Positions 10,058-28,836 are shown, numbered from the stretch's first letter. The stretch is DNA of 32,000 nt from Opitutales bacterium (GCA_965219535.1 CBDCNV010000001.1:1590001-1622000), one strand, 5' to 3'. Numbers and translations are program-made. The notes: a model not told the origin generated them from the sequence alone.

Positions 10058-11131
10058 TTAATTCTTTATGGCTCCCACTAGAGCTTTGTTCAGTGCCGGC
10101 ATCAGTTCGTTTGAAAAAAGATCGAGGTTGCGAAGCCAGCTGGCCTTGTCGTCCCAGTCAAATGCCATGAGGACAAGTGTGCCGAAGGGGCCGCTCTCTT
10201 CGATGAGCATGAGTAGCCGCTTGAGCACTTCATCTACGTCACCAGCGATAATCTGCTCGGATAACCAGTAGTCCATGTTACAGTCGGAATCTGCCATCTC
10301 GGGGTCACGCTTCATAAAGCCGCGTCCGGGTCCCAAGTCCATCAGACTGGCGAGGTACTCGAAGTTTTTTCCCGCTGAATTGGTACGGATCCGATCGACT
10401 GCCTCCTTCGTGGTGTCGGCGAGGAAAATTTGACGGGCTACTTTCCAGTCTGAACGATCCGGACTGTTGCCTGCTTGGAGAGCTGATTTTTCATAGGTCG
10501 CCCAGTTGTCTGCGAGGATATTACCGGTAGCGAGAGCGGCAGAGTAGGGGGCAAATCCGTATTTCCCGGCCAACTGCAAGCTGTATGAATTTCGATTTAT
10601 CCCCGGCATGGCAATCGGTGGATGCGGCTGCTGCAGTGGTTTGTGAATGAAACCGATCTGGGTTTCCTCGTGGACGTTTTCCTTGAGCGCGAACTGCCAG
10701 AATTCACCGTCGTGCTCATACGGCGGTTCTGATGACCACAGCTTTAATATAACGTCGAGTGCTTCTACCATCATAGCGCCGCCCACCTTTGGGTTCTGGC
10801 CATAGAGTTCGTAATCTGTTATTACCCCGCTGGGGCCAAGACAGAGATTGAGGCGTCCCTTAGAAAGGTGGTCGAGAAAAGCAAGTCGGGTGGCTACATA
10901 AGCCGGATGATGTTGGTTCAGGCATATTGGACATGGACCGAGGCGGATACGTTCGGTCTCTCCTAGAACGCGTCCGATAAAGACCTCTGGCACGACAACG
11001 GATTCGTATTTCATTGTGTGGTGCTCCCCAATCCAGAACTCGTCGAAATCTAGCGCCTCGGCCCAAACGACAAGCTCGATGTCCTCATCGTAGCACTGGG
11101 CTAGCGGTTTGTCCGGAGGATGGAACGGCAT
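10058..11131 (-). CDS. luciferase-like (LLM class) flavin-dependent monooxygenase
   Basis: MPFHPP...ELVVWAEALDFDEFWIGEHHT...RIRLGPCPICLNQHHPAYVATRLAFLDHLSKGRLNLCLGPSG is a typical LLM TIM-barrel N-terminal half. The true start is probably upstream of the annotated ATG (see finding). Confidence 0.85.
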   Translation of the reverse strand: MPFHPPDKPLAQCYDEDIELVVWAEALDFDEFWIGEHHTMKYESVVVPEVFIGRVLGETERIRLGPCPICLNQHHPAYVATRLAFLDHLSKGRLNLCLGPSGVITDYELYGQNPKVGGAMMVEALDVILKLWSSEPPYEHDGEFWQFALKENVHEETQIGFIHKPLQQPHPPIAMPGINRNSYSLQLAGKYGFAPYSAALATGNILADNWATYEKSALQAGNSPDRSDWKVARQIFLADTTKEAVDRIRTNSAGKNFEYLASLMDLGPGRGFMKRDPEMADSDCNMDYWLSEQIIAGDVDEVLKRLLMLIEESGPFGTLVLMAFDWDDKASWLRNLDLFSNELMPALNKALVGAIKN

Positions 11132-11363
11132 GATAAAAATGCCGGATTTTATCGATTGACTGTTGGCAATTATAAAGTTCCCTCCCTCTTAAATGCTATT
11201 TGGACATGAACTTAAAACTTAATAATAATGGCAAGAAATAATATTAAATTTAGGAATAGTATTTGTGTATGCGAACGGTATTATAACAATACCCTATTCA
11301 CCGTCATCTTTACAATTACGATAAATATTTACATACCCATTAACTCGCTCTCATCTATGTTCA

Positions 11364-13037
11364 TTATTTGCTATAGTAAAACTGAAAGGCATACAAACTC
11401 GCCTCCAGCAAATGAAAACACAAGCGCACAGGTTTGTTCCAAAGAGCACGCACATCTGTCTTTCCCTGCCAGGTGACAGGGTGCCAAATCTGGCCTTTGG
11501 GTGCGTGAACAGGATCGCAGTCCAGGGCGGAATAACCAGCGTAGGGCTCGAACTTGGAGTCTAGAATTTCCACGCGGATGAAGCCGTAGTCACAGTCGGC
11601 ATTGATTTTGAGCGAGTCGCCCTCGAAAACAAACTGCGTTGTATAGACTCTTCCCTGTTCATAGGTTGGTTTTAGTTTTGCCCAGCCGTCCTCACGCAGG
11701 ACCAGGCCGCCAATTCCACGCTGAAGCGGGAGTTCGGGTCGCACCTGGTCCATCATCGGATTTCCAATTCCGTGTTTGGTGAGTGCTTCCACATGTTCTT
11801 TTGATGCCCGGGCCGAAGATGCCGGAACATGATCCGATGTACCCGCCGGTCGAGTATCGCGTTGTTTAAAGGGGAAAGCGGAGTAGGGGATGATCATCTG
11901 ACCCTGGTGTAAGAGATAACCGGCGACCGAATGACAACAGTAGCCATAGTCCTGGCTTCCAGGTTCACCATTATCACCCCAGGGTTGGTATCCATCGGCG
12001 CGTACGAAATTAGTGCTGTCACGGCTGACGTAGAGCGCTGCCTTGGTGTGAAACTGGTCATGCTGATTGCTTTCAGCGGGAGTGTGCAGCCATTGATGTT
12101 CACCGTGCGCCTCGTCGACAATTCCGATGTAGAGGCCACCTTCTTTGCGTATCGACATGGTGTGGAGTTCGACATTTGGACTCAGGTTGGGATCCCACTC
12201 ACTAGAAAGGATAACCTTTTTAGGTGACCAGTTGATAAAGTCCTCGCTCTCTTGAAGACCGATCGTTCGCAGATGATTATGGCTCCAGGCGTGTGAGTGT
12301 TGAGAGTAGCCAAGCCACATCTGCTGCGACTCATCCCATATCACTCGCATTTGATGATGATGTCGAAAGGAGGTGGAGTCGCTGATCACCTGCCAGTGGA
12401 TACCGTCGGGTGAAGCTGCCACACGTGACATCACCCTTTCACCGCGCTTGAATGCTTCCGCTCCGGGATTATATACGGCGAGAAATTTCTTGTTGGGATC
12501 GCTGCGATCCGGGTTGAGGACCAGGGTCCCATTGTCAAAATCAGTTGCGACGATATTCGTCTTAGTCTTATTTTCGAAGGGCTGACAATCAGATGACAGT
12601 GGTTTCGTCCAATGAATGGCGTCCTCAGATTCAGCATAGCAGAGGACGACTCTGGTGCCATCGGCAAAATTGGTGTTACCGCTGACGAGCGTCTTATACC
12701 ATAGCTTGAATAGCCCGTCATCCGGGTCATGCAAGGCCGCCGCAACGACGCAGGTCCAGTGATAGCGTTCCCATGGCAGGTCCGTGTACTGGATTAGGGG
12801 TTCAGTTTTCTTGGGCCGTACAACGACGCGTTCAACGCCATCCAAATCGGCGAGTATAAAATTGTCCAGCAGGAGTTGCTTGTCCGTTCCAATGTGCGTG
12901 AAAGGGTGTTTGTAAGGGGGATTGAAATAGGGATAGGTCGCTATATCAACCGGACGTTTACCGGTCCAGGTATCATCCATACTGCGGTTTAGATCGAGAA
13001 GTTCAGTGGGGCTTTTATGTTCAGGTTGATCGTTCAT
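11364..13037 (-). CDS. beta-propeller (Asp-box-like) glycoside-hydrolase-like protein with C-terminal beta-sandwich, paralogue 1
   Basis: Blade motifs SEDAIHW, SPDGIHW, SEDFINW and SRDSTNF are present, and the C-terminal tail is ...VRLCFHLLEASLYAFQF. It is homologous to the ORFs at 20229 and 26303. The ATG at 13037 (AAGGA 5 nt upstream) is preferred over the TTG at 13061. Confidence 0.6.
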   Translation of the reverse strand: MNDQPEHKSPTELLDLNRSMDDTWTGKRPVDIATYPYFNPPYKHPFTHIGTDKQLLLDNFILADLDGVERVVVRPKKTEPLIQYTDLPWERYHWTCVVAAALHDPDDGLFKLWYKTLVSGNTNFADGTRVVLCYAESEDAIHWTKPLSSDCQPFENKTKTNIVATDFDNGTLVLNPDRSDPNKKFLAVYNPGAEAFKRGERVMSRVAASPDGIHWQVISDSTSFRHHHQMRVIWDESQQMWLGYSQHSHAWSHNHLRTIGLQESEDFINWSPKKVILSSEWDPNLSPNVELHTMSIRKEGGLYIGIVDEAHGEHQWLHTPAESNQHDQFHTKAALYVSRDSTNFVRADGYQPWGDNGEPGSQDYGYCCHSVAGYLLHQGQMIIPYSAFPFKQRDTRPAGTSDHVPASSARASKEHVEALTKHGIGNPMMDQVRPELPLQRGIGGLVLREDGWAKLKPTYEQGRVYTTQFVFEGDSLKINADCDYGFIRVEILDSKFEPYAGYSALDCDPVHAPKGQIWHPVTWQGKTDVRALWNKPVRLCFHLLEASLYAFQFYYSK

Positions 13038-13179: not shown

Positions 13180-15228
13180 ATGGAGCAACCAAATTTCAGT
13201 AACTGCCGATTGCAGGCCAGTATGATTTTGATGGCAATCACCATGGCAGTATTGGGCTGCAGTGGGAATAATGACAGCCGATCAATTGGAAAACCAAACA
13301 TACCAGAACGAGTCGCTGTCAGTACCGAGGGATTCAGTTTTATTTATCAGGGGGCGCCAGTCACTATATTCAGTGAAGCGCCAGAACTGGCAGAGCGCGT
13401 TGCCGCGGGAGAATTGCCCCGGTTGGAAGATCGCTTACCTGAAGAGCCCTTGATTGTACCGACCATAGAACGCATCGGGCAATACGGTGGTACCTGGCGC
13501 CGCGGGTTTACGGGACTTGATACGAGCAATATGGATCGGATTGTACATGATCACTTAATTTACTATGACATCGATGGGTACACCCTGATGCCTCACTTTG
13601 CGAAAGGATGGGAAATCAGCGAAGATGGGACAACATTTACTTTCCATCTGCGACCGGGGATGAAGTGGTCAGATGGAACCCCGTTCACAGCCGATGACTT
13701 CGTCTTCGCTTTCGAAGACATAAGTACAAATGAAAAGATCAATCCGATTAAACCTAACTATGCCACCGTGGACGGGCAGCTGTGCAAATGTGAAAAGTTA
13801 GATGAGACGACGGTTCGTTACACCTTTCATAAACCAAACTATGTTTTCATTGAGAGAGTGGGTGGTTTATACATTGCAGGTCAGTTCGTCCAGGGGGGGG
13901 CTCTCCCTCTCTTCGCACCGAGGCATTATTTAAGGCAGTTTCTCCCGCAGTATACACCCTTAAGTGATCTAAAGAATCAGGCGAAGGCAGCGGGAGACAA
14001 AAGTTGGGTGAAATTCTTTCAACGCAAAGCTTCACCCCATAAGAACCGTGACTTGCCGGTTATAGCTCCCTGGAAGCTAGTTACTCCGATAACGAGTGAT
14101 ATTTACTCTTTCGAACGCAACCCCTATTACTTTGCCGTCGATCCCGAAGGGAATCAGCTTCCCTATATCGACAAGATTGTATTGCGTCGATTTGAGAACT
14201 TGGAGGTGTTCAACTCACGGGTCATTGCCGGCGAGGTGGATATGCAACATCGTCATATCCTGATCGACAAAGTTCCTCTTCTCATAAGGGAGTCCCATAA
14301 AAGTAACTACCGTGTACTCATTTGGCCCAATTTAGGAGGTTCCGACGGCATCATATATGTTAACCAGACCTGGAACGGAGATCCGGAAATAAAAAAGTGG
14401 CTGAGAAGCCGTGATTTTCGGATAGCCCTCTCGCTTGCCATTGATCGGGTAGAAATAAATGAATCGATATTTATGGGCATTGGTGTGCCGAGAGCCTTCC
14501 TCCCATTCCCGAATAATCCCTATTATCCCGGTCCTGAATATGAGAAAAGGAATGCCGTTCGCAACCTGGAACAAGCTGACTCGATTCTCGACTCAATCGG
14601 CTTGGATAGGAAGGATAGTGAAGGTTACCGCCTGCGTACTGACAATAACGAGCGTCTGGTGATTACCTTTTCCGTTCCGGCTCAGTCGTTGATAGATTTT
14701 GAAGGTATAGCTGAACTTCTCGTGAATCATTGGAAGGATGTTGGCATCTATATACATTTAAGTGTGGAAGGGGAAACTTACTATGGAATTCGTCACAGTA
14801 ACAATGAACTACAACTCAACATGTGGTTAGCTGGCGGTTCTGAAAACCCGTGGACATATCCCAATATGACCATACCCGTTGTTGGCGGTGGATTCGCCCC
14901 GCTCAACAGTAAATGGTATACTACTAACGGACAAAGAGGTGTGGCTCCGACCGGTGATCTCAAACGTTTGCAGGAAATATATGAGGAAGGCAATAGTCTA
15001 CCTATAGCGATGCGTGCGGAACTGGGAAAAGAACTGTGGAGAATTCATTCAGACAACCTGTTTGTCATTGGCACGGTCGGGCAATCTCCAGCGATGAACG
15101 GCATAGTCGTAGTAAAAAATGATTTTCGTAATGTTCCCGATATGGCGCCCAACAGCGCCGCCATGCAGACCCCGGGAATTGCGCGACCCGAACAATTCTT
15201 TTTTGAGCGAAGCGGGCCAAACAACTGA
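13180..15228 (+). CDS. ABC-type substrate-binding lipoprotein, family 5 (oligopeptide/oligosaccharide/nickel class), copy 1
   Basis: The 682-aa product has the lipobox AVLGCSG. The overall SBP_bac_5-like pattern is present (WSDG.PFTADDFVF..., NP.YF.VDP.GNQLPYID, LNMW..GGSENPW). It is highly similar to copies 2 and 3. Confidence 0.85.
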   Translation: MEQPNFSNCRLQASMILMAITMAVLGCSGNNDSRSIGKPNIPERVAVSTEGFSFIYQGAPVTIFSEAPELAERVAAGELPRLEDRLPEEPLIVPTIERIGQYGGTWRRGFTGLDTSNMDRIVHDHLIYYDIDGYTLMPHFAKGWEISEDGTTFTFHLRPGMKWSDGTPFTADDFVFAFEDISTNEKINPIKPNYATVDGQLCKCEKLDETTVRYTFHKPNYVFIERVGGLYIAGQFVQGGALPLFAPRHYLRQFLPQYTPLSDLKNQAKAAGDKSWVKFFQRKASPHKNRDLPVIAPWKLVTPITSDIYSFERNPYYFAVDPEGNQLPYIDKIVLRRFENLEVFNSRVIAGEVDMQHRHILIDKVPLLIRESHKSNYRVLIWPNLGGSDGIIYVNQTWNGDPEIKKWLRSRDFRIALSLAIDRVEINESIFMGIGVPRAFLPFPNNPYYPGPEYEKRNAVRNLEQADSILDSIGLDRKDSEGYRLRTDNNERLVITFSVPAQSLIDFEGIAELLVNHWKDVGIYIHLSVEGETYYGIRHSNNELQLNMWLAGGSENPWTYPNMTIPVVGGGFAPLNSKWYTTNGQRGVAPTGDLKRLQEIYEEGNSLPIAMRAELGKELWRIHSDNLFVIGTVGQSPAMNGIVVVKNDFRNVPDMAPNSAAMQTPGIARPEQFFFERSGPNN

Positions 15229-15296
15229 GATTACACGAGAACGAACAAATTAATCGGAAATCGACACTATAAATAACCTTCTGATTCATTTACCTC

Positions 15297-15405
15297 TTGT
15301 CATCGCGAGGTTGCTGGGCAACCGTGGCGATCCAGGGGAACGACAATACGTGACAGGTATTCCCCTAGATTGCCGCAGTCGGCTACGCCTCCTTCGCAAT
15401 GACAA
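15297..15405. repeat. 109-bp palindromic element TTGTCATCGCGAGG...CCTTCGCAATGACAA
   Basis: The outer arms are ttgtcatcgcgagg and ccttcgcaatgacaa. The inner arms are cgtggcgatccagggga and tcccctagattgccgcag. It lies about 70 nt after the SBP1 stop. Confidence 0.7.
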
Positions 15406-15564
15406 ATAGAAGAGTGCAAATATCAAAATGACATTACAGTGAATATTTAATTACCCATATATGATGATTATTGCCAATCGAATATATACTGGTACTAACA
15501 GTGACTTTAATACTTTATAAGCTATATCACTACAGGTCTAATTAGATATGATTTTTAAAGTATT

Positions 15565-17598
15565 ATGAAGATTAATAAATTCCCAAGCTGTCGCACACCG
15601 ATCACTCTATTACTGATGGCGATCATTATTGTGGCGTTGGGTTGCAGCGGAAATAATAAATCTCCATCCACCGATAATTCGGATACTCCTGAACGGACCG
15701 CTGTCAGTACGGAGGGATTTAGTTTTATTTATCAGGGACCGCCACCCACTTCATTCAGTGAAGCTCCCGATCTGGCGAAACGTGTCGCGGCAGGGGAGTT
15801 GCCTCCGGTCGAGGATAGACTGCCTGATGAACCGTTAATAATTTCGCCCATTGAACGCATCGGTCAATACGGAGGGACTTGGCGCCGCGGATTTACAGGA
15901 GTTGATACTAACAACGTCGACCGGTTAATGCATGATCACGTAATTTACTTTGACCTCGACGGATATACGCTCGTCCCTCACGTCGCGAAAGGATGGGAAA
16001 TCAGCGAAGATGGAACAACTTTTACATTTTATCTGCGCGAGGGGATGAAGTGGTCTGATGGTGCGCCGTTCACGGCCGATGACTTTGTCTTCGCCTACGA
16101 AGAAATTATTTTGAATGATCAAATCAATCCGACAAAACCCAGCTACGCGAAAGTCGATGGGAAAATGTGCAAAGTAGAAAAGTTAGACGAAACCACGGTT
16201 CGCTATACATTTAATAAACCAAACTATGTCTTCATCGAGAATGCTGGTGGTTTAATCGTCGCTGGTCAGTACGCTGCCGGAGGAGGGCACCCCCCCTACG
16301 CGCCCCGGCATTATTTAAAGCAGTTTCTTCCGAAGTATACCCCCTTAAGTGATCTGAAAAGTAAGATGAAAGAAATAGGGCTCAGAAGTTGGGTGGAACT
16401 TTTCAAACACGTGGCTTCACCTCACAGGAACCGCGATTTGCCAGTGGTCGGTCCCTGGAGATTGGTTACTCCGATAACTGATGAAATATACTCATTGGAA
16501 CGCAACCCCTATTACTTTGCCGTCGATCCCGAAGGAAACCAACTTCCCTACATCGACAAGATTGTATTGCGCCGGTTTGAGGACTTGGAAGTTTTCAATG
16601 CGCGTGTCATGACTGGTGAGGTGGATATGCAACATCGTCATGTCCTTTTAGACAAAGTCCCTCTTCTCAAGCGGGAGGGAGGCAGGAGTAATTTCCGCCT
16701 CTTCTTATGGCCCAATTTAGGAGGTTCCGACGGCTTCATCTATGTTAACCAAACCTGGCAGGGAGATCCGGAAATAGAAAAGTGGTTAAGAAACCGCGAT
16801 TTTCGGATTGCCCTCTCACTTGCCATAGACCGGGAGGAGATAAACGAATTGATTTTTATGGGCCTGGGTGTTCCGAGAGCCTTCCTCCCCTTCCCGGATA
16901 ATCCTTATTATCCCGGTACCGAATATGAGAACAGGTATGCGATTCGTAACCTGGAAGAATCCAACGTGCATCTCGATGCCCTCGGTTTGGATAAGAAAGA
17001 CAGCGAGGGGTACCGACTGCGAACTGATAATTGGGAACGTCTGATTATTAACCTTACCGTCCCCAGTCAGTCTTATGTAGATTTTAGTGGAATAGCGGAA
17101 CTTCTCGTTAATCACTGGAAAGATGTCGGTATCGCAATACACTTAAGCGTTTTAGGGGAAACCTTTGTAGGGAGACTCCATGCAAACAACGAACTCCAAC
17201 TTCACCTGGGAATTTCTGGCGGTTCTGAAAATCCGTGGACTTACCCAAATATGACCATACCTGTCGTACAAGGTGGTTTCGCGCCTCTCGTTGGCGCTTG
17301 GTATTTATTTAACGGACAAAAGGGCGTGGCGCCAGCTGGCGCACTCAAGCGCCTGTTGGAAATATATGAGGAAGGCAACAGTCTACCCAAAGCGATGCGC
17401 ACGGAACTGGGAAAAGAATTATGGAAAATCCATTCAGACAATCTCTTTAATATTGGCATCGTCGGTCAATCACCGGCCATGAACGGTGTTGTCGTGGTGA
17501 AAAATAATTTTCGCAATGTTCCCGCTTTCGCGCCCAACAGTGCAACCCTGCAAACCCCCGGGATTGCGCGACCCGAACAATTCTTTTTTGATAACTGA
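15565..17598 (+). CDS. ABC-type substrate-binding lipoprotein, family 5, copy 2
   Basis: The 677-aa product has the lipobox VALGCSG and is colinear with copies 1 and 3. Confidence 0.85.
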   Translation: MKINKFPSCRTPITLLLMAIIIVALGCSGNNKSPSTDNSDTPERTAVSTEGFSFIYQGPPPTSFSEAPDLAKRVAAGELPPVEDRLPDEPLIISPIERIGQYGGTWRRGFTGVDTNNVDRLMHDHVIYFDLDGYTLVPHVAKGWEISEDGTTFTFYLREGMKWSDGAPFTADDFVFAYEEIILNDQINPTKPSYAKVDGKMCKVEKLDETTVRYTFNKPNYVFIENAGGLIVAGQYAAGGGHPPYAPRHYLKQFLPKYTPLSDLKSKMKEIGLRSWVELFKHVASPHRNRDLPVVGPWRLVTPITDEIYSLERNPYYFAVDPEGNQLPYIDKIVLRRFEDLEVFNARVMTGEVDMQHRHVLLDKVPLLKREGGRSNFRLFLWPNLGGSDGFIYVNQTWQGDPEIEKWLRNRDFRIALSLAIDREEINELIFMGLGVPRAFLPFPDNPYYPGTEYENRYAIRNLEESNVHLDALGLDKKDSEGYRLRTDNWERLIINLTVPSQSYVDFSGIAELLVNHWKDVGIAIHLSVLGETFVGRLHANNELQLHLGISGGSENPWTYPNMTIPVVQGGFAPLVGAWYLFNGQKGVAPAGALKRLLEIYEEGNSLPKAMRTELGKELWKIHSDNLFNIGIVGQSPAMNGVVVVKNNFRNVPAFAPNSATLQTPGIARPEQFFFDN

Positions 17599-17657
17599 CT
17601 TAATGATTATTTGCAGTTAATCTTCGTCTTCATCCTGTAATTATATACTAAAATATC

Positions 17658-17766: not shown

Positions 17767-17879
17767 GGGTTGCAAGATCTATTGCGTAATCTTATTTATA
17801 CCGATAACAATCAATGGTGTAATAATTTAATTGAAAACACACCCTTTAGGAGCGCGACATAATTAGTTTATCAAGCATT

Positions 17880-20228: not shown

Positions 20229-21623
20229 ATGAATACTAGATACCTTGTTCTTGATTCACGCATAATCGAAAGTACGGTCAATGCAAAGCTTGCCGTCACG
20301 GCAGCGGAGAAGGACCCGCGCAACCCCCTCTTTGGTGAAGATAATCCGTGGGAGAAACGTTATGACAATCTTTACGCGAATGTCTTCTACGATGAGCAGG
20401 AGAATCTCTATAAAAGTTGGTACAGTCCTTTTATCGTCGATCAATCTTCTCGTGGCATGAAAATTGGAGAGCGCCAGAAAAAAAAGTATAAGCCTCAAAA
20501 AGGCAGGGAGATGGGGGTTTGTTATGCCACCTCCCAGGACGGCATTGTTTGGGACAGACCCAATTTAGGCTTAGTTGAATATGACGGGAGTGTGAATAAT
20601 AATATTGTTTATCGCGGGCCTCACGGCGCGTGCGTGATCAAAGACCTCAGTGAAAAAGAGGGCGCGAAGCGCTACAAGATGTTCACTTCATCAGGTCAAG
20701 CGAAGATGGCCATATCCTTTTCACCGGATGGCATTCAGTGGGACCCGATCACCGTATGTCCTGATATCAATCCCTATCGCGTTGACGGCACGCATTACAA
20801 CACGTTGTGGGTTGATGAACTCGGCGAGTGGGTGGGGTTTACGCGTATGCGCGATCAGCAGGAAATCGGATCGGATTCAATGAAAAAGCGCCACGGCGCG
20901 TGGCCACCTCGACAAGTGGGAAGATCGACCTCACAAGACTACATCCACTGGTCACAAGCGGTGCCTGTTATGGAAGGATTGAATGAAAACCTGCAGATCT
21001 ATTCGATGCCTGTTTTTCGCCATGGAAGTGTGTTTCTCGGATTACCGGTTATCCACAACCAGCGGAGTGATCGGGCATGGACTGAATTAGCGTGGAGTGC
21101 CGACACCGTTGAATGGCATCGCGTTTGCCCGGGTTCACCTTTGATAGCCAATAGCGATCCCATCGGCAGTTACGACTGGGGCTGTGCGTATTCATCTGCT
21201 TATCCGATTTTTCTCAAAAATGAAATACGTCTTTATTATGGCGCGAGTAACGGTCTGCATTTCGGCTGGCGCGATGGTTTTTTCTGTCTCGCAACTTTGC
21301 GGCCGGATGGTTTTGCCGGTTACGAGCAAAAATCTGATAAGAGACCTGCGTCTATCAACACCGCATCTTTTGAATGTATAGGTAATGAACTTCAGCTCAG
21401 TGCGGATATTCAGAGTGTTGGTTCGGTGAAAGTGAAGTTATTCGATCAATCTAACGAGCAGGTGCTCGCCGAAGGCGAACCCATCGAAGAGAATGTAACA
21501 GACGGCGTTGTTAAGTGGCAAAATGGATTTTCAATGGGGAGTGTCAAAGGTCACGCAGTTCACCTGCAATTTATAATTAACGCGGCGAAACTTTTTTCAT
21601 TCGGCTTTGACCTTTTTGATTGA
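20229..21623 (+). CDS. beta-propeller (Asp-box-like) glycoside-hydrolase-like protein, paralogue 2
   Basis: AGGAGG lies 5 nt upstream of the ATG. Blade motifs SQDGIVW, SPDGIQW, SQDYIHW and SADTVEW are present. The C-terminal tail is ...HLQFIINAAKLFSFGF. Confidence 0.6.
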   Translation: MNTRYLVLDSRIIESTVNAKLAVTAAEKDPRNPLFGEDNPWEKRYDNLYANVFYDEQENLYKSWYSPFIVDQSSRGMKIGERQKKKYKPQKGREMGVCYATSQDGIVWDRPNLGLVEYDGSVNNNIVYRGPHGACVIKDLSEKEGAKRYKMFTSSGQAKMAISFSPDGIQWDPITVCPDINPYRVDGTHYNTLWVDELGEWVGFTRMRDQQEIGSDSMKKRHGAWPPRQVGRSTSQDYIHWSQAVPVMEGLNENLQIYSMPVFRHGSVFLGLPVIHNQRSDRAWTELAWSADTVEWHRVCPGSPLIANSDPIGSYDWGCAYSSAYPIFLKNEIRLYYGASNGLHFGWRDGFFCLATLRPDGFAGYEQKSDKRPASINTASFECIGNELQLSADIQSVGSVKVKLFDQSNEQVLAEGEPIEENVTDGVVKWQNGFSMGSVKGHAVHLQFIINAAKLFSFGFDLFD

Positions 21624-21643: not shown

Positions 21644-22552
21644 ATGATGCTCAAAGCAGAAGAAATAAACCGTTACGAAGAGGATGGTTGTCTGGTGTTG
21701 CGTCAGGTGCTCAATCCAGCGGATCTTGAGCCTTTACGCCAGTCGATCTCCGAATTTGTCGATCTGCAAATTCAGAAACTGCAGGCCGATGGAAAAGTTC
21801 GAGACCCTCACACTGAAGCTTCTTTCGAGAAGCGATGGGCGATCGTCTGTGAAGAAAATGATTTACAGAAGGGTGAAGATCGTGTCGCCCAATGGGGAGC
21901 GGGGAGTGGATTGCTCAACGAGGCGGTCTATAACCTGATCGCCGACCCGAGGCTAACTGACATCATGGCGTCTTTACTCGGTCCCGAAATCACCGCAAAT
22001 GGCGACTACTGGATCAGGCCAAAGGTTCCCGGTGACCCGATTACCACGCTCGCCTGGCATCAGGACAGCAACTATTACATCGGCAAGGGGGATAGTGCCA
22101 CCGTAGACGCGATGTCCGATCCAGGGGGGAAAGTACTGAACATGTGGGTGCCGCTTGTCGACGTCAACGAGCATAACGGCTGTCTCAAGCTCGTTCGCGG
22201 GAGCCATCGTCATGGAACTGTCGCTGCTCAAAGAAACGAATTGGGTCATTGGACCCCGGTCGAAGACGTGAGCCGATACGGGACAGTGGCCAATGAACCG
22301 ATGCAGCTCGGCGATGTGCTCATCTTTAACAATTTAACCTTGCACGCTTCAGGTAACAATGACTCCGACCATGTTCGCTGGAACATCGACCTGCGCTACT
22401 CACCAACCGGCCAAGCCGTTCATTGGCATAAACTGGGCGATAAGTTGGATTCAATTTTTCCAGGTTTCGTTGCCCGTAGCGACGACGCCACTAAAGTCAT
22501 GAGTTGGGAGCAATGGCAGGACAAGTGGAACAACAGGCCCGCCATAAATTAA
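21644..22552 (+). CDS. phytanoyl-CoA dioxygenase (PhyH) family Fe(II)/2-oxoglutarate dioxygenase
   Basis: The motifs are WHQDSNYY (HxD), NGCLKLVRGSHRHG and the distal His in LTLHASGNN. I prefer the start at ATG 21644 (MMLKAEEINRYEEDGCLVLRQ) by alignment with the paralogue at 27940; the track's TTG at 21620 overlaps the upstream stop. Confidence 0.85.
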   Translation: MMLKAEEINRYEEDGCLVLRQVLNPADLEPLRQSISEFVDLQIQKLQADGKVRDPHTEASFEKRWAIVCEENDLQKGEDRVAQWGAGSGLLNEAVYNLIADPRLTDIMASLLGPEITANGDYWIRPKVPGDPITTLAWHQDSNYYIGKGDSATVDAMSDPGGKVLNMWVPLVDVNEHNGCLKLVRGSHRHGTVAAQRNELGHWTPVEDVSRYGTVANEPMQLGDVLIFNNLTLHASGNNDSDHVRWNIDLRYSPTGQAVHWHKLGDKLDSIFPGFVARSDDATKVMSWEQWQDKWNNRPAIN

Positions 22553-22559: not shown

Positions 22560-23402
22560 ATGTCTAAAGAATCACACTGGAAACTTCGCACAGAAAACAA
22601 TTGCCTCTTTGTCGATGACGTATCAAACGGCAAGGTGGCAATACAGCACAATGCCCGCCCGGGTCTTCGACCTTACATTCACCCACTGCGTATGCGGGGA
22701 GGCGGTGTCTGCCTGACCGAGGATAGTCCCGGGCACCATCCCTGGCAACATGGTATCCAGACCGGTTTTCATGGAGTTAACGGCTGTGACTTTTGGTTCG
22801 ATCCCGGACAGCAACCCAATGTGGTGACTGGTACGATCGAACCCAGCGCGCCGTGTATTGCGAGCGAGGAACCGCCAAGCTGGAAGATCGAAGCGCTATG
22901 GCGGCATGCGGACGGCAGTGACCTCCTGGCAGAAGAGCAAAGTTGGTCCCTGCTCGAGGGCGAAACGCTACTGTTTTTAGATTTTGACTGGACGCTTCAA
23001 GCAATCCCCGATGTGAAAATAGAACAGCACGCTTACGGAGGTCTTTTTATTCGAATGCCATTTCGGCGGAGTAGTGGGGGCGATGTAATTAACGCCAGTG
23101 GCATGCGAGACGAAGATACTGAACAGCAGGCAGCAACCTGGGTAGACTTGCACATGCCAATAGAGAATAGCGAGAACGGCGCTGGCATCACGGTTTGTGA
23201 TCATCCCGAGAATACCAACCACCCCGCGCACTGGCGGGTGGACGGCAGTTGCGGAATCAACCCGGCGCCCTGTATTCCTGCTGAGATTGAGATGCCGACT
23301 GGAGCAAAATTGCGGCATCGCTACCGCCTGATCCTTCACGACGGACCGCTTCCACCCGAGCAGATCGAAAAACAGTGGGCGACATATGCGCGTGTTGGGT
23401 AA
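22560..23402 (+). CDS. DUF6807 / PmoA-family protein (function unknown)
   Basis: RPYIHPLRMRGGGVCLTEDSPGHHPWQHGIQTGFHGVNGCDFWF matches my memory of the family signature (KPY.HPL....G..LT...P.DH.HH.G.W.....VNG.DFW). Confidence 0.6.
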   Translation: MSKESHWKLRTENNCLFVDDVSNGKVAIQHNARPGLRPYIHPLRMRGGGVCLTEDSPGHHPWQHGIQTGFHGVNGCDFWFDPGQQPNVVTGTIEPSAPCIASEEPPSWKIEALWRHADGSDLLAEEQSWSLLEGETLLFLDFDWTLQAIPDVKIEQHAYGGLFIRMPFRRSSGGDVINASGMRDEDTEQQAATWVDLHMPIENSENGAGITVCDHPENTNHPAHWRVDGSCGINPAPCIPAEIEMPTGAKLRHRYRLILHDGPLPPEQIEKQWATYARVG

Positions 23403-23555: not shown

Positions 23556-24578
23556 ATGAGATCTGTAATCTGTGTACACGAAAGATTTGATGCGATATGG
23601 CCGTTTGCTGCCGATTATTGGCACAAACGCTGGCAGCAGAATGGTGGTTGCGAGTTCTACCGCACCGAAGATCCTGCTGCATGTCCCTCTCAAATTGTGT
23701 CGGACCCCGCCTCAGTGCACCGTTTGGTGCTTCTAGGTTTGCCCGCGGGTCCCGAGGATCTCGAGCCCTTTGCCGCACTCGAGGAGTGCTACCAAGAATC
23801 CCAAAGCTACCCAAAATCCCAATTCAAATCAACTGCCAGGGGTATAGAAGAGGCAACCGCTCGCGGTGTGAGCTTTATTCCCCACCGGGTCGATGTCTAT
23901 TGGGGACAATCGGTGTCCGAATTTGGCCTCGCACTGACTCTCTGTGCGCTCCGTCGCATACCGCAGACCTACGCCGCGATGAAAGAAAGTCTCAAACCCT
24001 GGGACTATATTCCAGAGGTGGGAAAACCGGGGCAGCGCGGTGCGCAATTTGGAGATGATATCCGCTTTACCAATGGCACGTTGGCGGGCAAAAGGGTGCG
24101 CGTAGTCGGGGCAGGAAATATCGGGGCCCGTTATTCATCTTTTTGCACAGCGTTGGGCGCACAGGTAGCAATATGGGATCCCTATGCACCCGATGCCTCT
24201 TTTGTTGTCGCCGGTGCCGAACGCTGCTTCCATTTATCTGAACTGGTAAAAGATTCAGAAATTTTTGTACCCATGGTGCCTCTAAAAGATGATACCCGCG
24301 GTTTAGTAACCGCTGAGTTGATTGATGCACTACCACATGGAAGCTTGGTCGTGCAGGTGACACGGGCCGCGGTTTGCGACACCGACGCCCTCTATCGACG
24401 CGTATTGAACGATGAGCTTGCGCTCGCCGCCGACGTTTTTAAACCCGAACCTGTGGCACTGGATTCCCTCTTGCTTGGTCGGGACAACGTGGTGCACACA
24501 CCACACAACGCCGGTCGAACAATCGATGCGAATCATGCCTGGGTAAAAGATTTGATTTCCCGATTCAAATCACGCTAA
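23556..24578 (+). CDS. D-isomer-specific 2-hydroxyacid dehydrogenase-family NAD(P)-binding oxidoreductase
   Basis: The Rossmann motif RVRVVGAGNIGARY is present, together with VPMVPLKDDTRGLV, LAADVFKPEP and VVHTPHNAG. The N-terminal ~100 aa are atypical. Confidence 0.7.
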   Translation: MRSVICVHERFDAIWPFAADYWHKRWQQNGGCEFYRTEDPAACPSQIVSDPASVHRLVLLGLPAGPEDLEPFAALEECYQESQSYPKSQFKSTARGIEEATARGVSFIPHRVDVYWGQSVSEFGLALTLCALRRIPQTYAAMKESLKPWDYIPEVGKPGQRGAQFGDDIRFTNGTLAGKRVRVVGAGNIGARYSSFCTALGAQVAIWDPYAPDASFVVAGAERCFHLSELVKDSEIFVPMVPLKDDTRGLVTAELIDALPHGSLVVQVTRAAVCDTDALYRRVLNDELALAADVFKPEPVALDSLLLGRDNVVHTPHNAGRTIDANHAWVKDLISRFKSR

Positions 24579-24595
24579 ATGAGAGGAAATTGATT

Positions 24596-25450
24596 ATGTC
24601 CATTTTAAGGCCTGAGGAAGCGCTGTGCAAACGCAATGAGCTGGTAGATATGGGTTATACCATTCTGCCTGGTATGATGCCGGAATCTCTGCTTAATGAA
24701 TTAAGCGACTGGTCTGCTGAACGATTGCCGAAGATTAAAATTGACGATAGGATACGCTATCAGGGTAGCGATATTTTTGTATTTACAGAGCGCCAGTGGG
24801 AAAAAACAAATGGTAAACCCATGAAGGGTGATCATCCCCACTTCAAAGATCCGATTGCCGAAAAAGTGATAGATTTACCAGCCCAACTGGAGGTCTGCCG
24901 ACAACTCGGCTTGGAAAATCTTAAATCCGATGGGTCTCTCATCATTTTATCCAAACCCGGTCATGGGCCGCCCTTGTATTGGCATCAGGATTTTATGGAT
25001 TGGAACAGTCCCCAAGCGGCAACACCCTGGCCGACCAAGATTTTTCTCTCCTATTACCTGACGGATACGACGCGTGAAAATGGCTGCCTACGCGTCATTC
25101 CCGGCAGCCATCGCAAACGTCACCCTTTACATGATCTTTTACCCGATGCCCATGACGCTGAACTCCAGGCTATCGATGATCTCTCACATCCTGCTTTTGC
25201 TGACTATCCCGATGCCATTGACGTCCCGCTCAAAGCGGGAGATTTGATTATTGCCGATGCACGTCTCATGCACTCAGCCTGGCCGAATCAAACCGCAGAA
25301 CGCCGAACATTGATGTTGGCCTGGCACGATGTCTTTCAATTTCCCGAGCCCCCAAGCTGGTGGACGCGCGCTATCCCCGAGTGTGTAAAAAATGTTGATC
25401 CCAACGCCCAATATGAACGCTCCCGAACACCGACTCACTATATCGCATAA
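24596..25450 (+). CDS. PhyH-family Fe(II)/2-oxoglutarate dioxygenase
   Basis: The motifs are YWHQDFMDW (HxD), NGCLRVIPGSHRKRH and ARLMHSAWPN. The ATG at 24596 has GAGAGG about 9 nt upstream. Confidence 0.8.
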   Translation: MSILRPEEALCKRNELVDMGYTILPGMMPESLLNELSDWSAERLPKIKIDDRIRYQGSDIFVFTERQWEKTNGKPMKGDHPHFKDPIAEKVIDLPAQLEVCRQLGLENLKSDGSLIILSKPGHGPPLYWHQDFMDWNSPQAATPWPTKIFLSYYLTDTTRENGCLRVIPGSHRKRHPLHDLLPDAHDAELQAIDDLSHPAFADYPDAIDVPLKAGDLIIADARLMHSAWPNQTAERRTLMLAWHDVFQFPEPPSWWTRAIPECVKNVDPNAQYERSRTPTHYIA

Positions 25451-25483: not shown

Positions 25484-26278
25484 ATGTCGAAAGCAGGATT
25501 ACGCCATTTAACTGAAGACCAGTTGTTATCATTTATAACAAACGGCTTTCTTATTGTCGAAGATGTTCTATCGCCGGACGAAGTCAAAGTGTTGTCAGAA
25601 CGATGCGATATGATTGCCGCCGGTGAAGCCGATCATATCCCGGAAACCAGCCTTCAACTTGAGCAGGTATTTCGCGAGGGTGAAAAGCAGGTTGAAAATC
25701 AAGTGCTCTCTACGCGTAAATTATATGATATTGCCGTTTATGATCCGGTGATGTGGCAGCATGTAGTGCATCCAAAAATTGTCACTATCATTACCGATCT
25801 GCTCGGCTGTAAGGATATCAAATTGTACGGGGACCAATTGTTTATGAAACCGCCAGAAGTGGGAACGGAAGTGCCCTGGCACCAGGATTCGGCGTCGTGG
25901 CGCGATATTTTCCCCATGGAGTTAGTCAGTGCCTGGACGGCGATTGACGAAGCGACCGAAGAAAACGGCTGTCTCACTTATGTACCGGGCACACATCGCT
26001 GGGGGATGATGCACAAGAATAAAGTGCAATGGTTTTCATCGGATTTTGGTAATGATCAATGGCCCGTCATCTCAGCAACTATGAAACCGGGCAGTATTAG
26101 TTTTCACCATAGTTTAACGCTTCATCGGACCTCTGCTAATCTCTCGGGCAAACGACGACGAGGTTACTCAGTTCACTATATGCGCGCTACCTCCAGGAAA
26201 GATGAATCAGTCACCGATGCGCCAAAAATGCCTCCGTTTAAGCAAGTGTGTGGCCGATCTTTCGAGGATTGTGTGTAA
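25484..26278 (+). CDS. PhyH-family Fe(II)/2-oxoglutarate dioxygenase
   Basis: The motifs are PWHQDSASW (HxD), NGCLTYVPGTHRWG and FHHSLTLHRTSAN. Confidence 0.8.
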   Translation: MSKAGLRHLTEDQLLSFITNGFLIVEDVLSPDEVKVLSERCDMIAAGEADHIPETSLQLEQVFREGEKQVENQVLSTRKLYDIAVYDPVMWQHVVHPKIVTIITDLLGCKDIKLYGDQLFMKPPEVGTEVPWHQDSASWRDIFPMELVSAWTAIDEATEENGCLTYVPGTHRWGMMHKNKVQWFSSDFGNDQWPVISATMKPGSISFHHSLTLHRTSANLSGKRRRGYSVHYMRATSRKDESVTDAPKMPPFKQVCGRSFEDCV

Positions 26279-26302: not shown

Positions 26303-27862
26303 TTGAATAACCCAGACAACATTTCCCACAAGCTCTATGCCAATGAGAGTGTATTACTCCTTGATGAGACTTTGATCGAGGAGGAGAACGGTATCCGAAG
26401 GGAAGTCCAACCGGGGAAGACGATACCTTTCGTTATGGAGCCCGACATAGACAAACCGTGGGAGTATTGCGGTCCTGGGATGAGCAAGCGAATCCACCTA
26501 TACGGTACAACGCTCTATGACGACCTAGTGGGAAAATATCGGATGTGGTACTTCGGCCGTATGGGCCCTCACTGGCGCGCCCCCGCTTGCAACTATCAGA
26601 TACCTGGACTCTTTGTACCGCGCACTGACGAAAAACCTTACAACTGCAACGGTGTTACCGAAGATAAGTTCGGGAGATCCTTTGTCGACAACGACCGGGG
26701 TGATCTGACCTTGTATGCAGAGAGCGATGACGGCATCAACTGGGACAAACCTAAACTGGGCATCTTCACTTTCAACGGAAGCACTGAGAATAATATCATA
26801 TGGGATTTTCACGGGGCCTCGGTGTTCATTGACCGGGAGGAAAAAGACTCCGACAAAAGGTACAAGGCCATCGGCTTCTGTCGGCGCTATCGCAATATAT
26901 TCATGATCACTTCTCCCGATGGCATTCATTGGGATGACAAAGATTATATCGAACCCGTGTCCCGACGCGGCAACGAGGGCTCTTTCAATGTAATCTATGA
27001 TTCGAGGTATCATATCTTCCGGGCTTACTCAATCGTGCGGTTTAATGATAAAGAAAAAAGGAGGGTTATCTGTTACACGGAGAGCCCATCCTTGGAAGGA
27101 CCCTGGAAGGAGCCGCAACCGATGCTCGAGCCGAATAGTTGGGACGATGAAATAGGGCGCCGGAATTACAAAGCGCTGCGCGCCGAGTTTCACAACATGT
27201 CTGCCTTTCGTTACAATAATATTTATCTTGGTTTACTGGGAGTTCTTTATGTGACAGCAGAGCAGATTCCCAGCCAGGAAAACCAGGTGCCCTGTGACGG
27301 ACCCATCGATTCACAGATCGTCTATAGCCGGGACGGCATCAGTTGGGCGCGCGCCGATAGAAACCGGACTGCGGCAATACCCCGGGGTGGCGAAGACGCA
27401 TTTGACCGGGGGATGATTCTTGGAATAGCCAAAGAGCCGATTATCGAGGGCGACGAGATTCACTGGTATTACACCGGCTGTGAACATACCCATGGTGAAA
27501 CGGATATGGAAAAGCGGGTTAAACGTCTGGGGCGTGCGACCTGGCTGAGAGATCGTTTTGTCGCATTGTGTGCAAAAGAAGACGGTATGATTGCGACCAG
27601 AACTTTTACCCTGCCAGGGGGTACCCAGAGTCTGGAAGTAAATGCCAATGCTTCAGGTGGTCAGTTGTCAGCAGAACTATGCGACGCAGAGGGTAGGGTC
27701 TTGAACGGCTTTTCGAAGGATGAATGCGTGCCGTTGAACAGCGATGAGTTGCGATGGCAGCTTAAATGGAAAAAAGGTGATTTTGCGACAGTCAAAGACG
27801 CGGTGAAATTTCGGTTCATTCTCAATGGAGCCAAAGTTTACAGTTTTACATTTTGCCATTAG
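26303..27862 (+). CDS. beta-propeller (Asp-box-like) glycoside-hydrolase-like protein, paralogue 3
   Basis: The TTG start lies just after AGGAGG. Blade motifs SDDGINW, SPDGIHW and SRDGISW are present. The C-terminal tail is ...VKFRFILNGAKVYSFTF. Confidence 0.6.
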   Translation: MNNPDNISHKLYANESVLLLDETLIEEENGIRREVQPGKTIPFVMEPDIDKPWEYCGPGMSKRIHLYGTTLYDDLVGKYRMWYFGRMGPHWRAPACNYQIPGLFVPRTDEKPYNCNGVTEDKFGRSFVDNDRGDLTLYAESDDGINWDKPKLGIFTFNGSTENNIIWDFHGASVFIDREEKDSDKRYKAIGFCRRYRNIFMITSPDGIHWDDKDYIEPVSRRGNEGSFNVIYDSRYHIFRAYSIVRFNDKEKRRVICYTESPSLEGPWKEPQPMLEPNSWDDEIGRRNYKALRAEFHNMSAFRYNNIYLGLLGVLYVTAEQIPSQENQVPCDGPIDSQIVYSRDGISWARADRNRTAAIPRGGEDAFDRGMILGIAKEPIIEGDEIHWYYTGCEHTHGETDMEKRVKRLGRATWLRDRFVALCAKEDGMIATRTFTLPGGTQSLEVNANASGGQLSAELCDAEGRVLNGFSKDECVPLNSDELRWQLKWKKGDFATVKDAVKFRFILNGAKVYSFTFCH

Positions 27863-27939
27863 TAATGGAGAGTAAAGGGAGACTTATATAAAGTGCGTAT
27901 TGATGAACTTATAAGGATCCGATTTTTAAGAAGGGCTCC

Positions 27940-28836
27940 ATGGCATCATTAAGCCAATCAGAAGTAAACACCTACCGGGATCAGGGCTACCTGGTTCTGC
28001 GACAGTGTATTAATCCTGATGGCTTGTCATCCGCGCGCGTTTTAATTGACGAGCTCGTGAACAGGCACGCACGCGAACTCTACCATGCAGGAAAGATTTC
28101 TTCCTTACATGAAGGAGAGTCGTTTGAGCGTCGCATGGTTGTCATTAATGAGGAAGCTGGGTTCAAAACTAGAAATTGGGATGTAACAGAAGTCTCCGAT
28201 TCCCCGGAACTGTACCCTCTCATACTCCATCCGGTTATCCTTGACAGCGTCGAGTCGCTCCTGGGATCTGAAATTGCCTGGACGGGCAGCTATGCCGCCA
28301 GACCAAAAATACCACAACATGAGTTGACCGCATTTCCCTGGCACCAGGATAGCCAATATTACGGCGAGCCAACTAAACACCTCCATATAGTGAGTGTGTG
28401 GATACCCCTGGTCGATGCGGATGAGCGCAATGGTTGTCTTTACATCATACCGGGCAGCCATAAATGGGGTATACTGAAGGGCGAACGCGCTGCAGATAGA
28501 AATATACGCACGTTCGAGGATGTAGAAAAAAAGGGTGAGCCGGTAGCTTTGCCCATGAGAGTGGGTGATATTCTTTTCTTCACCAATCTTACCTTTCATA
28601 CGAGCAAACTTAATTCCACTGACAAGGTGCGTTGGAGTGTGGACTTGCGCTATGTCGTGCCACCAGAATCACAAACACTGACCGAACACGAGCGGGAAGG
28701 CTATAACACGCTCAATGATCACTATAAGATGTCAAACATTACCGTTCGCAGTCGTCAGCCAGAGAAGATTGCGAGCATACAGCAACTGAAGGAATACGTT
28801 ACCCGGCGCATAGAGCAGTTGGCAGAATCCAGGTAA
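27940..28836 (+). CDS. PhyH-family Fe(II)/2-oxoglutarate dioxygenase (closest paralogue of 21644-22552)
   Basis: The motifs are PWHQDSQYY (HxD), NGCLYIIPGSHKWG and LTFHTSKLN. The N-terminus SEVNTYRDQGYLVLRQCINP parallels EEINRYEEDGCLVLRQVLNP. Confidence 0.85.
   Translation: MASLSQSEVNTYRDQGYLVLRQCINPDGLSSARVLIDELVNRHARELYHAGKISSLHEGESFERRMVVINEEAGFKTRNWDVTEVSDSPELYPLILHPVILDSVESLLGSEIAWTGSYAARPKIPQHELTAFPWHQDSQYYGEPTKHLHIVSVWIPLVDADERNGCLYIIPGSHKWGILKGERAADRNIRTFEDVEKKGEPVALPMRVGDILFFTNLTFHTSKLNSTDKVRWSVDLRYVVPPESQTLTEHEREGYNTLNDHYKMSNITVRSRQPEKIASIQQLKEYVTRRIEQLAESR

Follow-up and report, generated by a model that had tools for sequence, protein, structure and literature searches.

A probable glycan-utilisation locus of an Opitutales bacterium drawn from an unnamed propeller family and unusually rich in Fe(II)/2-oxoglutarate oxygenases

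We have analysed a stretch of 32,000 nt from a marine Opitutales bacterium (GCA_965219535.1 CBDCNV010000001.1:1590001-1622000), called the window below, with coordinates counted from its first letter. It contains a cluster of genes encoding three beta-propeller proteins (PropA, PropB and PropC), three solute-binding proteins (SBP1-3), five oxygenases of the PhyH family (PhyH1-4 and a fifth that is cut by the end of the window), a DUF6807 protein and a dehydrogenase-like enzyme. The cluster is probably a glycan-utilisation locus that draws on an unnamed enzyme family and is unusually rich in Fe(II)/2-oxoglutarate (2OG) oxygenases. An earlier note on this DNA had proposed that each propeller gene and the oxygenase gene following it form a conserved module, the pair having been duplicated as a unit. 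On the sequence comparisons presented here, that two-gene module is not conserved outside the lineage, and its partners are not co-inherited.

The three propellers are true distant paralogues. In pairwise BLASTP comparisons PropB and PropC share 24% identity (E 6e-23), PropA and PropB 23% (E 4e-16) and PropA and PropC 24% (E 1e-14). The motif S-x-D-x3-[WF] occurs five times in PropA, four times in PropB and three times in PropC, where residue shuffles give an expectation of 0.15-0.19 (P <= 0.001), and the proteins terminate in ASLYAFQF, AKLFSFGF and AKVYSFTF, respectively. The earlier description of three paralogous propellers with a recurring blade motif and a common C-terminal tail is thus borne out. 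None of the three has a match in Pfam or NCBIfam, and the same is true of 40 homologues of PropB; an assignment to PF22847, carried as precomputed annotation by a few homologues, was not reproduced at E <= 0.1. Searches of PDB sequences with single-sequence queries gave no match, and a profile of the PropB clade gave one marginal match. These searches agree with the suggestion that the propellers fall outside described sequence families. As judged by profile searches, they are members of a very large unnamed family. We found 1,717 homologues of PropB, and a profile built from the PropA, PropB and PropC clades together gave 18,844 matches at E <= 1e-3 and 4,017 at E <= 1e-30, each match standing for one cluster at 50% identity. 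The family is centred in Planctomycetota, Verrucomicrobiota, Poribacteria and marine Gammaproteobacteria, and its members are found fused to BNR_2 sialidase-like, Laminin_G_3, alginate-lyase, beta-lactamase-fold, 3-keto-disaccharide-hydrolase and GDSL (PF13472/PF00657) domains.

Models of PropB and PropC were built with AlphaFold2 (AF2) on alignments of 40 and 38 homologues, with pLDDT values of 89.2 and 89.8, respectively. Each is predicted to fold into a five-bladed beta-propeller followed by a C-terminal beta-sandwich. Comparison of each model with the PDB using Foldseek gave 165 matches at E <= 1e-3, and among the matches listed almost all are carbohydrate-active propellers. Those of PropB include members of the glycoside hydrolase (GH) families GH183 (EndoMA1), GH32, GH130, GH43 and GH137, together with the Flavonifractor GalNAc deacetylase, while those of PropC include GH43, GH130, GH183, GH32, GH62 and GH117; GH159 is also among the matches listed. 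Identities are 8-17%, and TM-scores reach no more than 0.48 when normalised on the query and 0.70 when normalised on the target. The models show the propellers to have the predicted fold of the glycoside hydrolase and phosphorylase propellers.

The three-clade profile was needed in order to reach PDB sequences directly. It matched the deacetylase 6n1a (E 3e-7), 4u6d (E 1.8e-4), the GH130 proteins 9fj8 (E 3.8e-4) and 7fip (E 4e-3), with weaker matches to the anhydro-alpha-L-galactosidases 4ak5-4ak7 (GH117, E ~0.2) and to GH32 (E ~0.7); GH43 and GH183 were not reached by this profile among PDB sequences. The segments aligned are the Y-A-x-S-x-D-G-x-x-W blade motifs to which the earlier note had drawn attention. 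The protein 4u6d is deposited as a hypothetical periplasmic protein, and we take it to be a GH117-like protein of Zobellia; 5ta7 is presumably to be grouped with the GH117-like proteins too. Invariant in all three clades are L6, D9, W41, E42, D55, W64, Y65, N125, R228, D292, D360 and the blade motifs, and D316 is conserved in more than 90%. D55, which closes the inner strand of blade I and reads 'HDP' in PropA, occupies what we take to be the position of the catalytic base of GH43 and the nucleophile of GH32.

The genomic surroundings of the family were studied in a set of 147 loci (1.9 Mb) around PropA-, PropB- and PropC-type genes from genomes and metagenomes; individual loci carry numbers prefixed L. 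These were annotated using iterated hidden Markov models (HMMs), whose seeds were taken from the window and from neighbours that Pfam had labelled; the HMMs replaced a single-sequence phmmer screen that missed divergent PhyH proteins such as that of a spirochaete. Redundancy was handled by grouping the loci at the nucleotide level, giving 85 groups with one representative each. Single-linkage clustering of the propellers at 60-70% identity was dropped, as it merged clades and diluted the signal. In the 85 non-redundant groups, S1 sulfatases are enriched directly beside propellers (8/143 adjacent slots versus 7/583 farther away; odds ratio (OR) 4.9, p=0.003), as are Laminin_G_3 proteins (OR 3.3, p=0.02), and 25 of the 85 groups contain more than one propeller gene. 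Also labelled by Pfam among the neighbours are GH2, GH94, GH172, rhaM, NanM-like Kelch proteins, sugar transporters and PIG-L, and also Gfo/Idh/MocA, SDR, AP_endonuc_2 and Opp-type permeases with SBP_bac_5, the permeases lying beside propeller genes in L083, L084 and L093. Marine Verrucomicrobiota are described in PMC8857213 as specialists on sulfated methyl-pentose polysaccharides.

Some of the neighbours bear on the kind of sugar that might be involved. Genes for NanM-like proteins (Kelch proteins of the sialate mutarotase type) and fusions to BNR_2 recur (L148 1-1149, L149 5844-6998 and L153 11149-13722; proteins P0080 and P0361), and a PIG-L deacetylase is encoded in both L148 and L149. 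These neighbours make a connection with acidic or amino sugars possible, nonulosonic acids being an example.

PropA orthologues have 69-91% identity, and PropC orthologues of 70-77% identity are found in Poribacteria and other genomes. Across Poribacteria, Trueperaceae and other phyla (for example L082 from Poribacteria, L084 and L148) the identities are 70-77% for PropC, 69-70% for PropA and 66-72% for PropB, and these homologues come from the same kind of marine and host-associated sets of metagenome-assembled genomes (MAGs). Identities of 66-77% across phyla in such sets suggest that propeller genes may have been exchanged horizontally among co-habiting bacteria. A tblastn search of plasmids found nothing for PropB, and for PropA and PropC one weak partial match each, to a hypothetical protein of an Isosphaeraceae plasmid.

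We turn to the binding proteins. SBP1-3 are about 75% identical to one another. The best solved relatives of SBP2 are the Thermotoga maritima protein 5ipw (E 1.8e-110), SPH1118 (E 3e-81) and AgpA (E 5e-35). The only defined ligands in this large branch of family 5 are pectin oligomers (SPH1118) and alpha-galactosides (AgpA) (PMC9314435). SBP1-3 fall in the oligosaccharide-binding branch of the family, presumably with a carbohydrate as ligand, and SPH1118 and AgpA fit the role in oligosaccharide capture that the earlier note had given to the SBPs. PropA, PropB, PropC and the other enzymes of the cluster have no signal peptide, and the SBPs have lipoboxes; by these signals the enzymes are predicted to be cytoplasmic and the SBPs lipoproteins. 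In a crude test, signal-peptide-like N-termini were found in about half of the PropB-clade homologues, for example in Planctomycetota, while most members of the PropA and PropC clades lack them, as do the window proteins.

This arrangement resembles an oligosaccharide-utilisation locus of the ATP-binding cassette (ABC) importer type, and not a polysaccharide utilisation locus of Bacteroidota, which has a SusC/SusD pair where the window has none. In the ABC-importer clusters of Sphingomonas (SPH1118), Sinorhizobium (AgpA) and Thermotoga (Opp-like), SBP_bac_5 proteins of more than 600 aa are likewise found beside cytoplasmic glycosidase-like enzymes. The window differs from these in having three SBPs with no permease, enzymes of unnamed families and five Fe/2OG oxygenases. 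SBP1-3 (13180-19913) are encoded in tandem as orphans, and the gene for their transporter, or for some other partner, lies elsewhere.

The cluster is well conserved among its closest relatives. The best genomic matches are Opitutales MAGs in which PropB is 96% and 84% identical, and the same cluster is present at 79-93% nucleotide identity in eight Opitutales contigs that come from MAGs and from metagenomes of seawater (L001-L003, L027 and L088-L091). The common order is PropA, the divergent SBP genes, PropB, PhyH1, DUF6807, dehydrogenase, PhyH2, PhyH3, PropC and PhyH4, and PropA is kept beside SBP genes in L001-L003. A fifth PhyH is retained after the cluster in L001, L088 and L091 (window 31547-32000 aligns to the L001 PhyH region). 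From PropB to PhyH4 all the genes run in the same direction with intergenic gaps of 7-153 nt, including 20 nt between PropB and PhyH1 and 77 nt between PropC and PhyH4. From this close packing in one direction and the order kept among the contigs we regard the cluster as operon-like; it is specific to a lineage of marine Opitutales (Verrucomicrobiota). A scan for promoters and terminators was uninformative, with counts equal to those of shuffled sequence; it gave a promoter-like site between PropA and the gene for an LLM-class flavin/F420 oxidoreductase.

One contig has an informative addition. In L003, where the cluster identity is 84%, the gene for an S1 sulfatase (L003 11497-12879) is inserted between PropB and PhyH1; the protein, which lacks a signal peptide and is taken to be cytoplasmic, has an SGSH_C domain. 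Since sulfatases are also the most enriched neighbours of the propellers, a sulfated substrate for the cluster is plausible. The earlier idea of a decorated, maybe sulfated, oligosaccharide agrees with this as regards sulfation, and its other part, a role for the oxygenases, stays a proposal.

Taking these observations together, it is somewhat more probable than the alternatives combined that the products of the Opitutales cluster take up an oligosaccharide, decorated and probably sulfated, and break it down in the cytoplasm. That the propellers act on glycans is likely; that the oxygenases act on the same substrate is close to an even question, tilted if anything towards the negative. In the scheme that we propose, the three lipoprotein SBPs would capture the substrate, as their homology indicates, and deliver it to an ABC permease encoded at an unlinked site. 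PropA, PropB and PropC would then cleave or trim it in the cytoplasm as hydrolases, phosphorylases or deacetylases, each perhaps directed to a different terminal residue or linkage. Finally the five PhyHs, the DUF6807 protein and the dehydrogenase-like enzyme might process an unusual sugar so released, or strip off decorations. All that suggests this last step is the close packing of the genes in one direction, which the lineage has kept.

Several points weigh against this interpretation. Neither ABC permease nor ATPase genes were found in the 32-kb window by open reading frame (ORF) listing and Pfam scan, and 5ipw, the closest solved relative of the SBPs, has no known ligand (PMC9314435). The best profile match of the propellers is to a deacetylase (6n1a) and not to a glycosidase. 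No carboxylate of blade III or IV is conserved in the alignment across the three clades, with the consequence that the chemistry of the propellers cannot be fixed. The AF2 models and Foldseek support the fold in the proposal of a hydrolase- or lyase-like propeller, whose chemistry is putative. 'Unnamed' refers to Pfam, NCBIfam and the PDB, and a recent CAZy family that has no Pfam model may include the propellers. Lastly, some of the genomes concerned are so rich in PhyH genes that propellers and PhyH may lie together outside Opitutales by chance.

The oxygenases themselves are clearly assigned at the level of the superfamily. PhyH1-4 score 87-142 bits against PF05721 (cut-off 22), and the partial fifth PhyH scores 53 bits. 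When aligned, PhyH1-4 all keep W-H-Q-D and a more distal His, which make up the iron-binding HxD...H triad in place of the HxA/G of halogenases, and downstream of these the Arg that binds 2OG. Within the window the nearest pair is PhyH1 and PhyH4 (34% identity, E 6e-56; other pairs 24-32% over partial lengths), just as the earlier note had them. PhyH1-4 could be assigned to no characterised subfamily such as EctD, PhnY*, halogenase, PtlH or carbohydrate-cluster oxygenase, with NCBIfam scores of 18-56 bits where the cut-offs are 150-550. The nearest solved relatives (EvdO2, SnoK/SnoN, EctD, MysH and PHYHD1) are matched with E values of only 1e-8 to 1e-18: the best is EctD for PhyH2 (E 1.4e-8), EvdO2 for PhyH3 (E 1.4e-18, with MysH also matched) and SnoK for PhyH4 (E 1.1e-13), and PhyH1 has distant relatives only. 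KanJ is absent from the PDB relatives of all four, and the analogy with KanJ-type enzymes acting on amino-sugars is not upheld. By NCBIfam and PDB relatives PhyH1-4 map to no known small-molecule pathway. The DUF6807 protein has no PDB relative, and in the loci studied it is confined to the Opitutales clusters; for the 2-hydroxyacid-dehydrogenase-like enzyme every NCBIfam match is far below cut-off. Literature searches found no characterisation of DUF6807, of PhyH with sulfatase in Verrucomicrobia, or of 2OG dioxygenases in polysaccharide utilisation.

Could the oxygenases have nothing to do with the propellers? The PhyHs, DUF6807 protein and dehydrogenase might act on small molecules, such as osmolytes, amino-acid derivatives or phosphonates, unrelated to the propeller substrate, their co-location being a by-product of a massive expansion of PhyH in marine and host-associated genomes. 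In Poribacteria PhyH accounts for at least 1.9% of genes, in about 193 clusters whose function is mostly unknown (PMC3909097). PhyH genes make up 3.6% of the non-propeller genes in the neighbourhoods studied, with no peak at adjacency. In the 85 groups PhyH is not enriched beside propellers (7/143 adjacent slots versus 19/583 farther away, OR 1.5, p=0.32), and with the Opitutales relatives and redundant Poribacteria removed the figures are 5/90 and 17/287 (p=1). Adjacency that is statistically conserved across genomes and MAGs, which the earlier note had set as a check, is thus not what we find. Of the enzymes distantly related to PhyH1-4, some use small molecules (EctD, leucine hydroxylase, MysH and PhnY-like enzymes) and others, EvdO2 and SnoK/SnoN, act on sugar moieties. 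Set against an unrelated function is the presence of five PhyH genes among about 21, co-directional, closely spaced and kept across the Opitutales contigs in the manner of co-transcribed genes. We consider an unrelated small-molecule role somewhat unlikely, though a possibility to be taken seriously.

If instead the oxygenases do share the substrate of the propellers, a more general role may be imagined, in which PhyH oxygenases would be glycan-tailoring enzymes that join the propeller family in breaking down, in the cytoplasm, sulfated or amino-sugar glycans of marine and host origin. This is speculative, and in this general form improbable. If true, tailoring might consist in the oxidative removal of sulfate, methyl and other ether or ester decorations, with keto-sugars re-reduced by the dehydrogenase-like enzyme, and it would explain the massive PhyH expansions in Poribacteria and other marine and sponge-associated bacteria. 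The operon-like Opitutales cluster, with three SBPs, three propellers and five PhyHs, offers a compact test bed for asking whether the PhyH expansions long noted in sponge symbionts are connected with glycan breakdown.

A second alternative concerns the chemistry of the propellers, which might use the same fold for metal-dependent de-N-acetylation or for GH130-like phosphorolysis, and not be glycoside hydrolases at all. The relationships with known families are instructive here. The Flavonifractor plautii GalNAc deacetylase (6n1a/6n1b) gives, in addition to the best profile match (E 3e-7), the top Foldseek identity (16-17%), and it has the S-x-D-G-x-x-W blade motif (four copies) and, in blade V, G-x-W-D, both as in the propellers. 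It differs in being secreted and multi-domain and in acting on the blood-group A antigen, and the query-normalised TM-score is 0.48. The GH130 beta-mannoside phosphorylases and hydrolases (9fj8/9gph, 7fip, 5a7v and 4udg) give the best local superpositions (TM 0.6-0.7 target-normalised, rmsd 5-6 A) and share an N-terminal N-P-x...P-W-E lead-in and S-x-D-G blade motifs with the propellers. They are only 12-14% identical, however, and at about 300-350 aa they lack the beta-sandwich domain. The many invariant Arg and His residues in the PropB clade, the lack of conserved carboxylates in blades III and IV, and the PIG-L and NanM-like neighbours in L148 and L149 that point to amino or acidic sugars, would also suit such chemistry.

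The hydrolase families show a different pattern of likeness. GH43, GH32 and GH183 (3c7g, 3u75, 6r3r and 8hhv) share the combination of propeller and C-terminal beta-sandwich and give the top Foldseek E values (4e-10 to 1e-9), but with identities of 8-13%, a global rmsd of 14-19 A and profile links that are weak at best; their catalytic carboxylates in blades III and IV (GH43/GH32) are not conserved across PropA, PropB and PropC. GH117 proteins (4ak5 and 3p2n, so named in the match tables) are also five-bladed, with the W-Y...Y-A-x-S-x-D-G-x-x-W motif and a long insert in blade I. The sequence match is limited to about 50-60 residues, and GH117 has no C-terminal beta-sandwich. GH117 enzymes are intracellular exo-enzymes in marine glycan catabolism. 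The profile matches to the deacetylase and to GH130 are marginal and limited to blade motifs, and an Asp is invariant at the blade-I catalytic position of GH43/GH32; we therefore judge it unlikely that the propellers are something other than glycoside hydrolases. Whatever the reaction, their sulfatase neighbourhood makes them a candidate new family of carbohydrate-active enzymes for sulfated marine glycans.

The proposal that propeller and following oxygenase are a conserved module, duplicated as a unit, with PropA-LLM as a variant, the two acting jointly on one substrate, has some immediate appeal. An oxygenase gene follows every propeller gene on the same strand, the LLM-class gene after PropA (at 232 nt), PhyH1 after PropB and PhyH4 after PropC, exactly as had been described, and in the window PropB is closest to PropC among the propellers, as PhyH1 is to PhyH4 among the PhyHs. 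The adjacency also recurs elsewhere, with order and orientation that vary. In Poribacteria we find PhyH-PropC-PropC-SDR, and in L084 and L093 GFO-PropC-PhyH-SBP5-OppBC, while in the spirochaete L083 PhyH is divergent from PropB-OppBC-SBP5. L148 and L149 have NanM-like-PhyH-PropA-like, and in L087 PhyH lies directly upstream of a PropA orthologue, the two being read through as one ORF.

That ORF (L087 8001-10031) encodes P0270, a PhyH::PropA protein of 676 aa whose propeller part is 76% identical to PropA, and which we discounted as a Rosetta-stone fusion. Its linker is a translated intergenic stretch, its PropA part is broken into two ORFs and the contig has a low coverage of 13x. P0270 is probably a read-through caused by assembly error, although the adjacency of PhyH and PropA is real.

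Closer comparison argues against the module. The LLM-class gene lies in a 1.7-kb segment (9704-11411) that is missing from L001 and L002, at 92% nucleotide identity, where its flanks are about 86 nt apart, and the iterated HMMs found no LLM homologue in the 147 loci. In L003, DUF3604 directly abuts PropA, and the whole 2.9-11.4 kb stretch, with IS481 transposase, Ig_7, Sel1, small ORF and LLM, is missing. These contigs mark the stretch beside the cluster as a hypervariable spot and the LLM gene as a strain-specific insertion, not a conserved part of the cluster. PropB and PropC, for their part, are ancient separate clades, because they are only 24% identical while each has orthologues of more than 50% identity in other phyla. 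Yet none of the 65 genes of the free-living PropB clade lies within two genes of a PhyH. In the marine and host-associated clades the proportions are 28/62 for PropC-type and 15/20 for PropB-type genes, counts that are dominated by two lineages. No PhyH lies within 10 kb of the closest PropB orthologue outside Opitutales, that of Trueperaceae L004 (72% identity).

The partners of PropC lead to the same view. PhyHs beside PropC orthologues of 69-76% identity are no more than 29% identical to any window PhyH, the sole exception being L142, where a PropC pair has next to it, on the opposite strand, a PhyH4-like gene of 43% identity. Since the PhyHs beside close PropC orthologues are not orthologues of those in the window, the partners have not been inherited together. 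With the variable order and the lack of enrichment in the non-redundant set, a conserved and jointly duplicated module is very unlikely. The lesson is that in a genome full of one gene family, genes should not be paired by function because they lie close together.

Least probable of all, and highly unlikely, is the import and processing of peptides or glycopeptides: SBP_bac_5 is the classical Opp/Dpp peptide-binding family, OppA and DppA are among the weaker PDB matches and Opp-type permeases accompany propeller genes in three loci, but the strong SBP matches (E around 1e-81 and 5e-35) are to carbohydrate binders while the matches to peptide binders (E 1e-11) cover only a short part at the N-terminus, SPH1118 gave no response to peptides (PMC9314435), and no peptidase was seen in the cluster by Pfam scan.

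The features of the window are collected in Table 1. The ORFs are present where the earlier note had placed them, and the three SBP genes, the two further PhyH genes, DUF6807 and 2-Hacid_dh that it had listed in the cluster are all identified by Pfam. Its statement that the window lacks a sulfatase, a SusC/D pair and a sugar kinase agrees with our Pfam scans of the 32 kb, which gave no match to any of these. The PropA ORF opens at TTG 13061; we have adopted ATG 13037, in agreement with the start called for this gene in L001, a close relative.

Table 1. Features of the 32,000-nt window, with the basis of each assignment
Feature	Position	Strand	Basis and remarks
DUF3604	691-2904	+	ORF listing and Pfam scan
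IS481-type transposase	3136-4326	+	ORF listing and Pfam scan
Ig_7 protein	4662-6911	-	ORF listing and Pfam scan
Sel1-repeat protein	7158-8141	+	ORF listing and Pfam scan
155-aa ORF	8590-9057	+	ORF listing
LLM-class flavin/F420 oxidoreductase	10058-11131	-	PF00296, E 1.7e-36; adjoins PropA
PropA, 557 aa, predicted five-bladed propeller plus beta-sandwich type	11364-13037	-	Divergent from SBP genes; paralogue of PropB/PropC
SBP1, family-5 solute-binding lipoprotein, 682 aa	13180-15228	+	PF00496, E 1.2e-56; lipobox VLGC|S
SBP2, family-5 solute-binding lipoprotein, 677 aa	15565-17598	+	PF00496, E 1e-59
SBP3, family-5 solute-binding lipoprotein, 677 aa	17880-19913	+	PF00496, E 6.5e-57; lipobox
PropB, 464 aa, predicted five-bladed propeller plus beta-sandwich	20229-21623	+	AF2 model, Foldseek
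PhyH1, Fe(II)/2-oxoglutarate oxygenase	21644-22552	+	PF05721, E 2e-24; HxD...H triad and Arg
DUF6807 (PmoA-like) protein	22560-23402	+	PF14100, E 2.4e-50
2-Hydroxyacid-dehydrogenase-like NAD-binding enzyme	23556-24578	+	PF02826, E 1.7e-31
PhyH2, Fe(II)/2-oxoglutarate oxygenase	24590-25450	+	PF05721, E 2.1e-24
PhyH3, Fe(II)/2-oxoglutarate oxygenase	25484-26278	+	PF05721, E 2.9e-41
PropC, 519 aa, predicted five-bladed propeller plus beta-sandwich	26303-27862	+	AF2 model, Foldseek
PhyH4, Fe(II)/2-oxoglutarate oxygenase	27940-28836	+	PF05721, E 1.9e-30; closest paralogue PhyH1
GT2 glycosyltransferase	28867-29853	-	Pfam scan
493-aa ORF, no Pfam match	29907-31388	-	ORF listing
Fifth PhyH gene, 3' part, cut by window end	31555-32000	-	PF05721, E 6.6e-14

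A second segment of the window is variable among the relatives. The sequence between PhyH4 and the fifth PhyH (28847-31546), which carries the GT2 gene and the 493-aa ORF, has no counterpart by blastn in L001, L002, L088 or L091, of which L088 and L091 cover the PhyH4 end of the cluster. L001 has a TonB_C gene at this place.

A tandem array of the propeller family is found in Chloroflexi. In L150 169-7978 (SHYO01000145.1) there are five consecutive genes with no Pfam match, and four of these are PropA/PropB-type paralogues in tandem.

On the other side of the cluster, one of the two genes in window 4662-8141 codes for a secreted protein with an Ig_7 domain and the other for a Sel1-repeat protein. 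Eukaryote-like repeat proteins of this sort are often remarked in host-associated bacteria, and the two are consistent with a symbiotic lifestyle without proving one.

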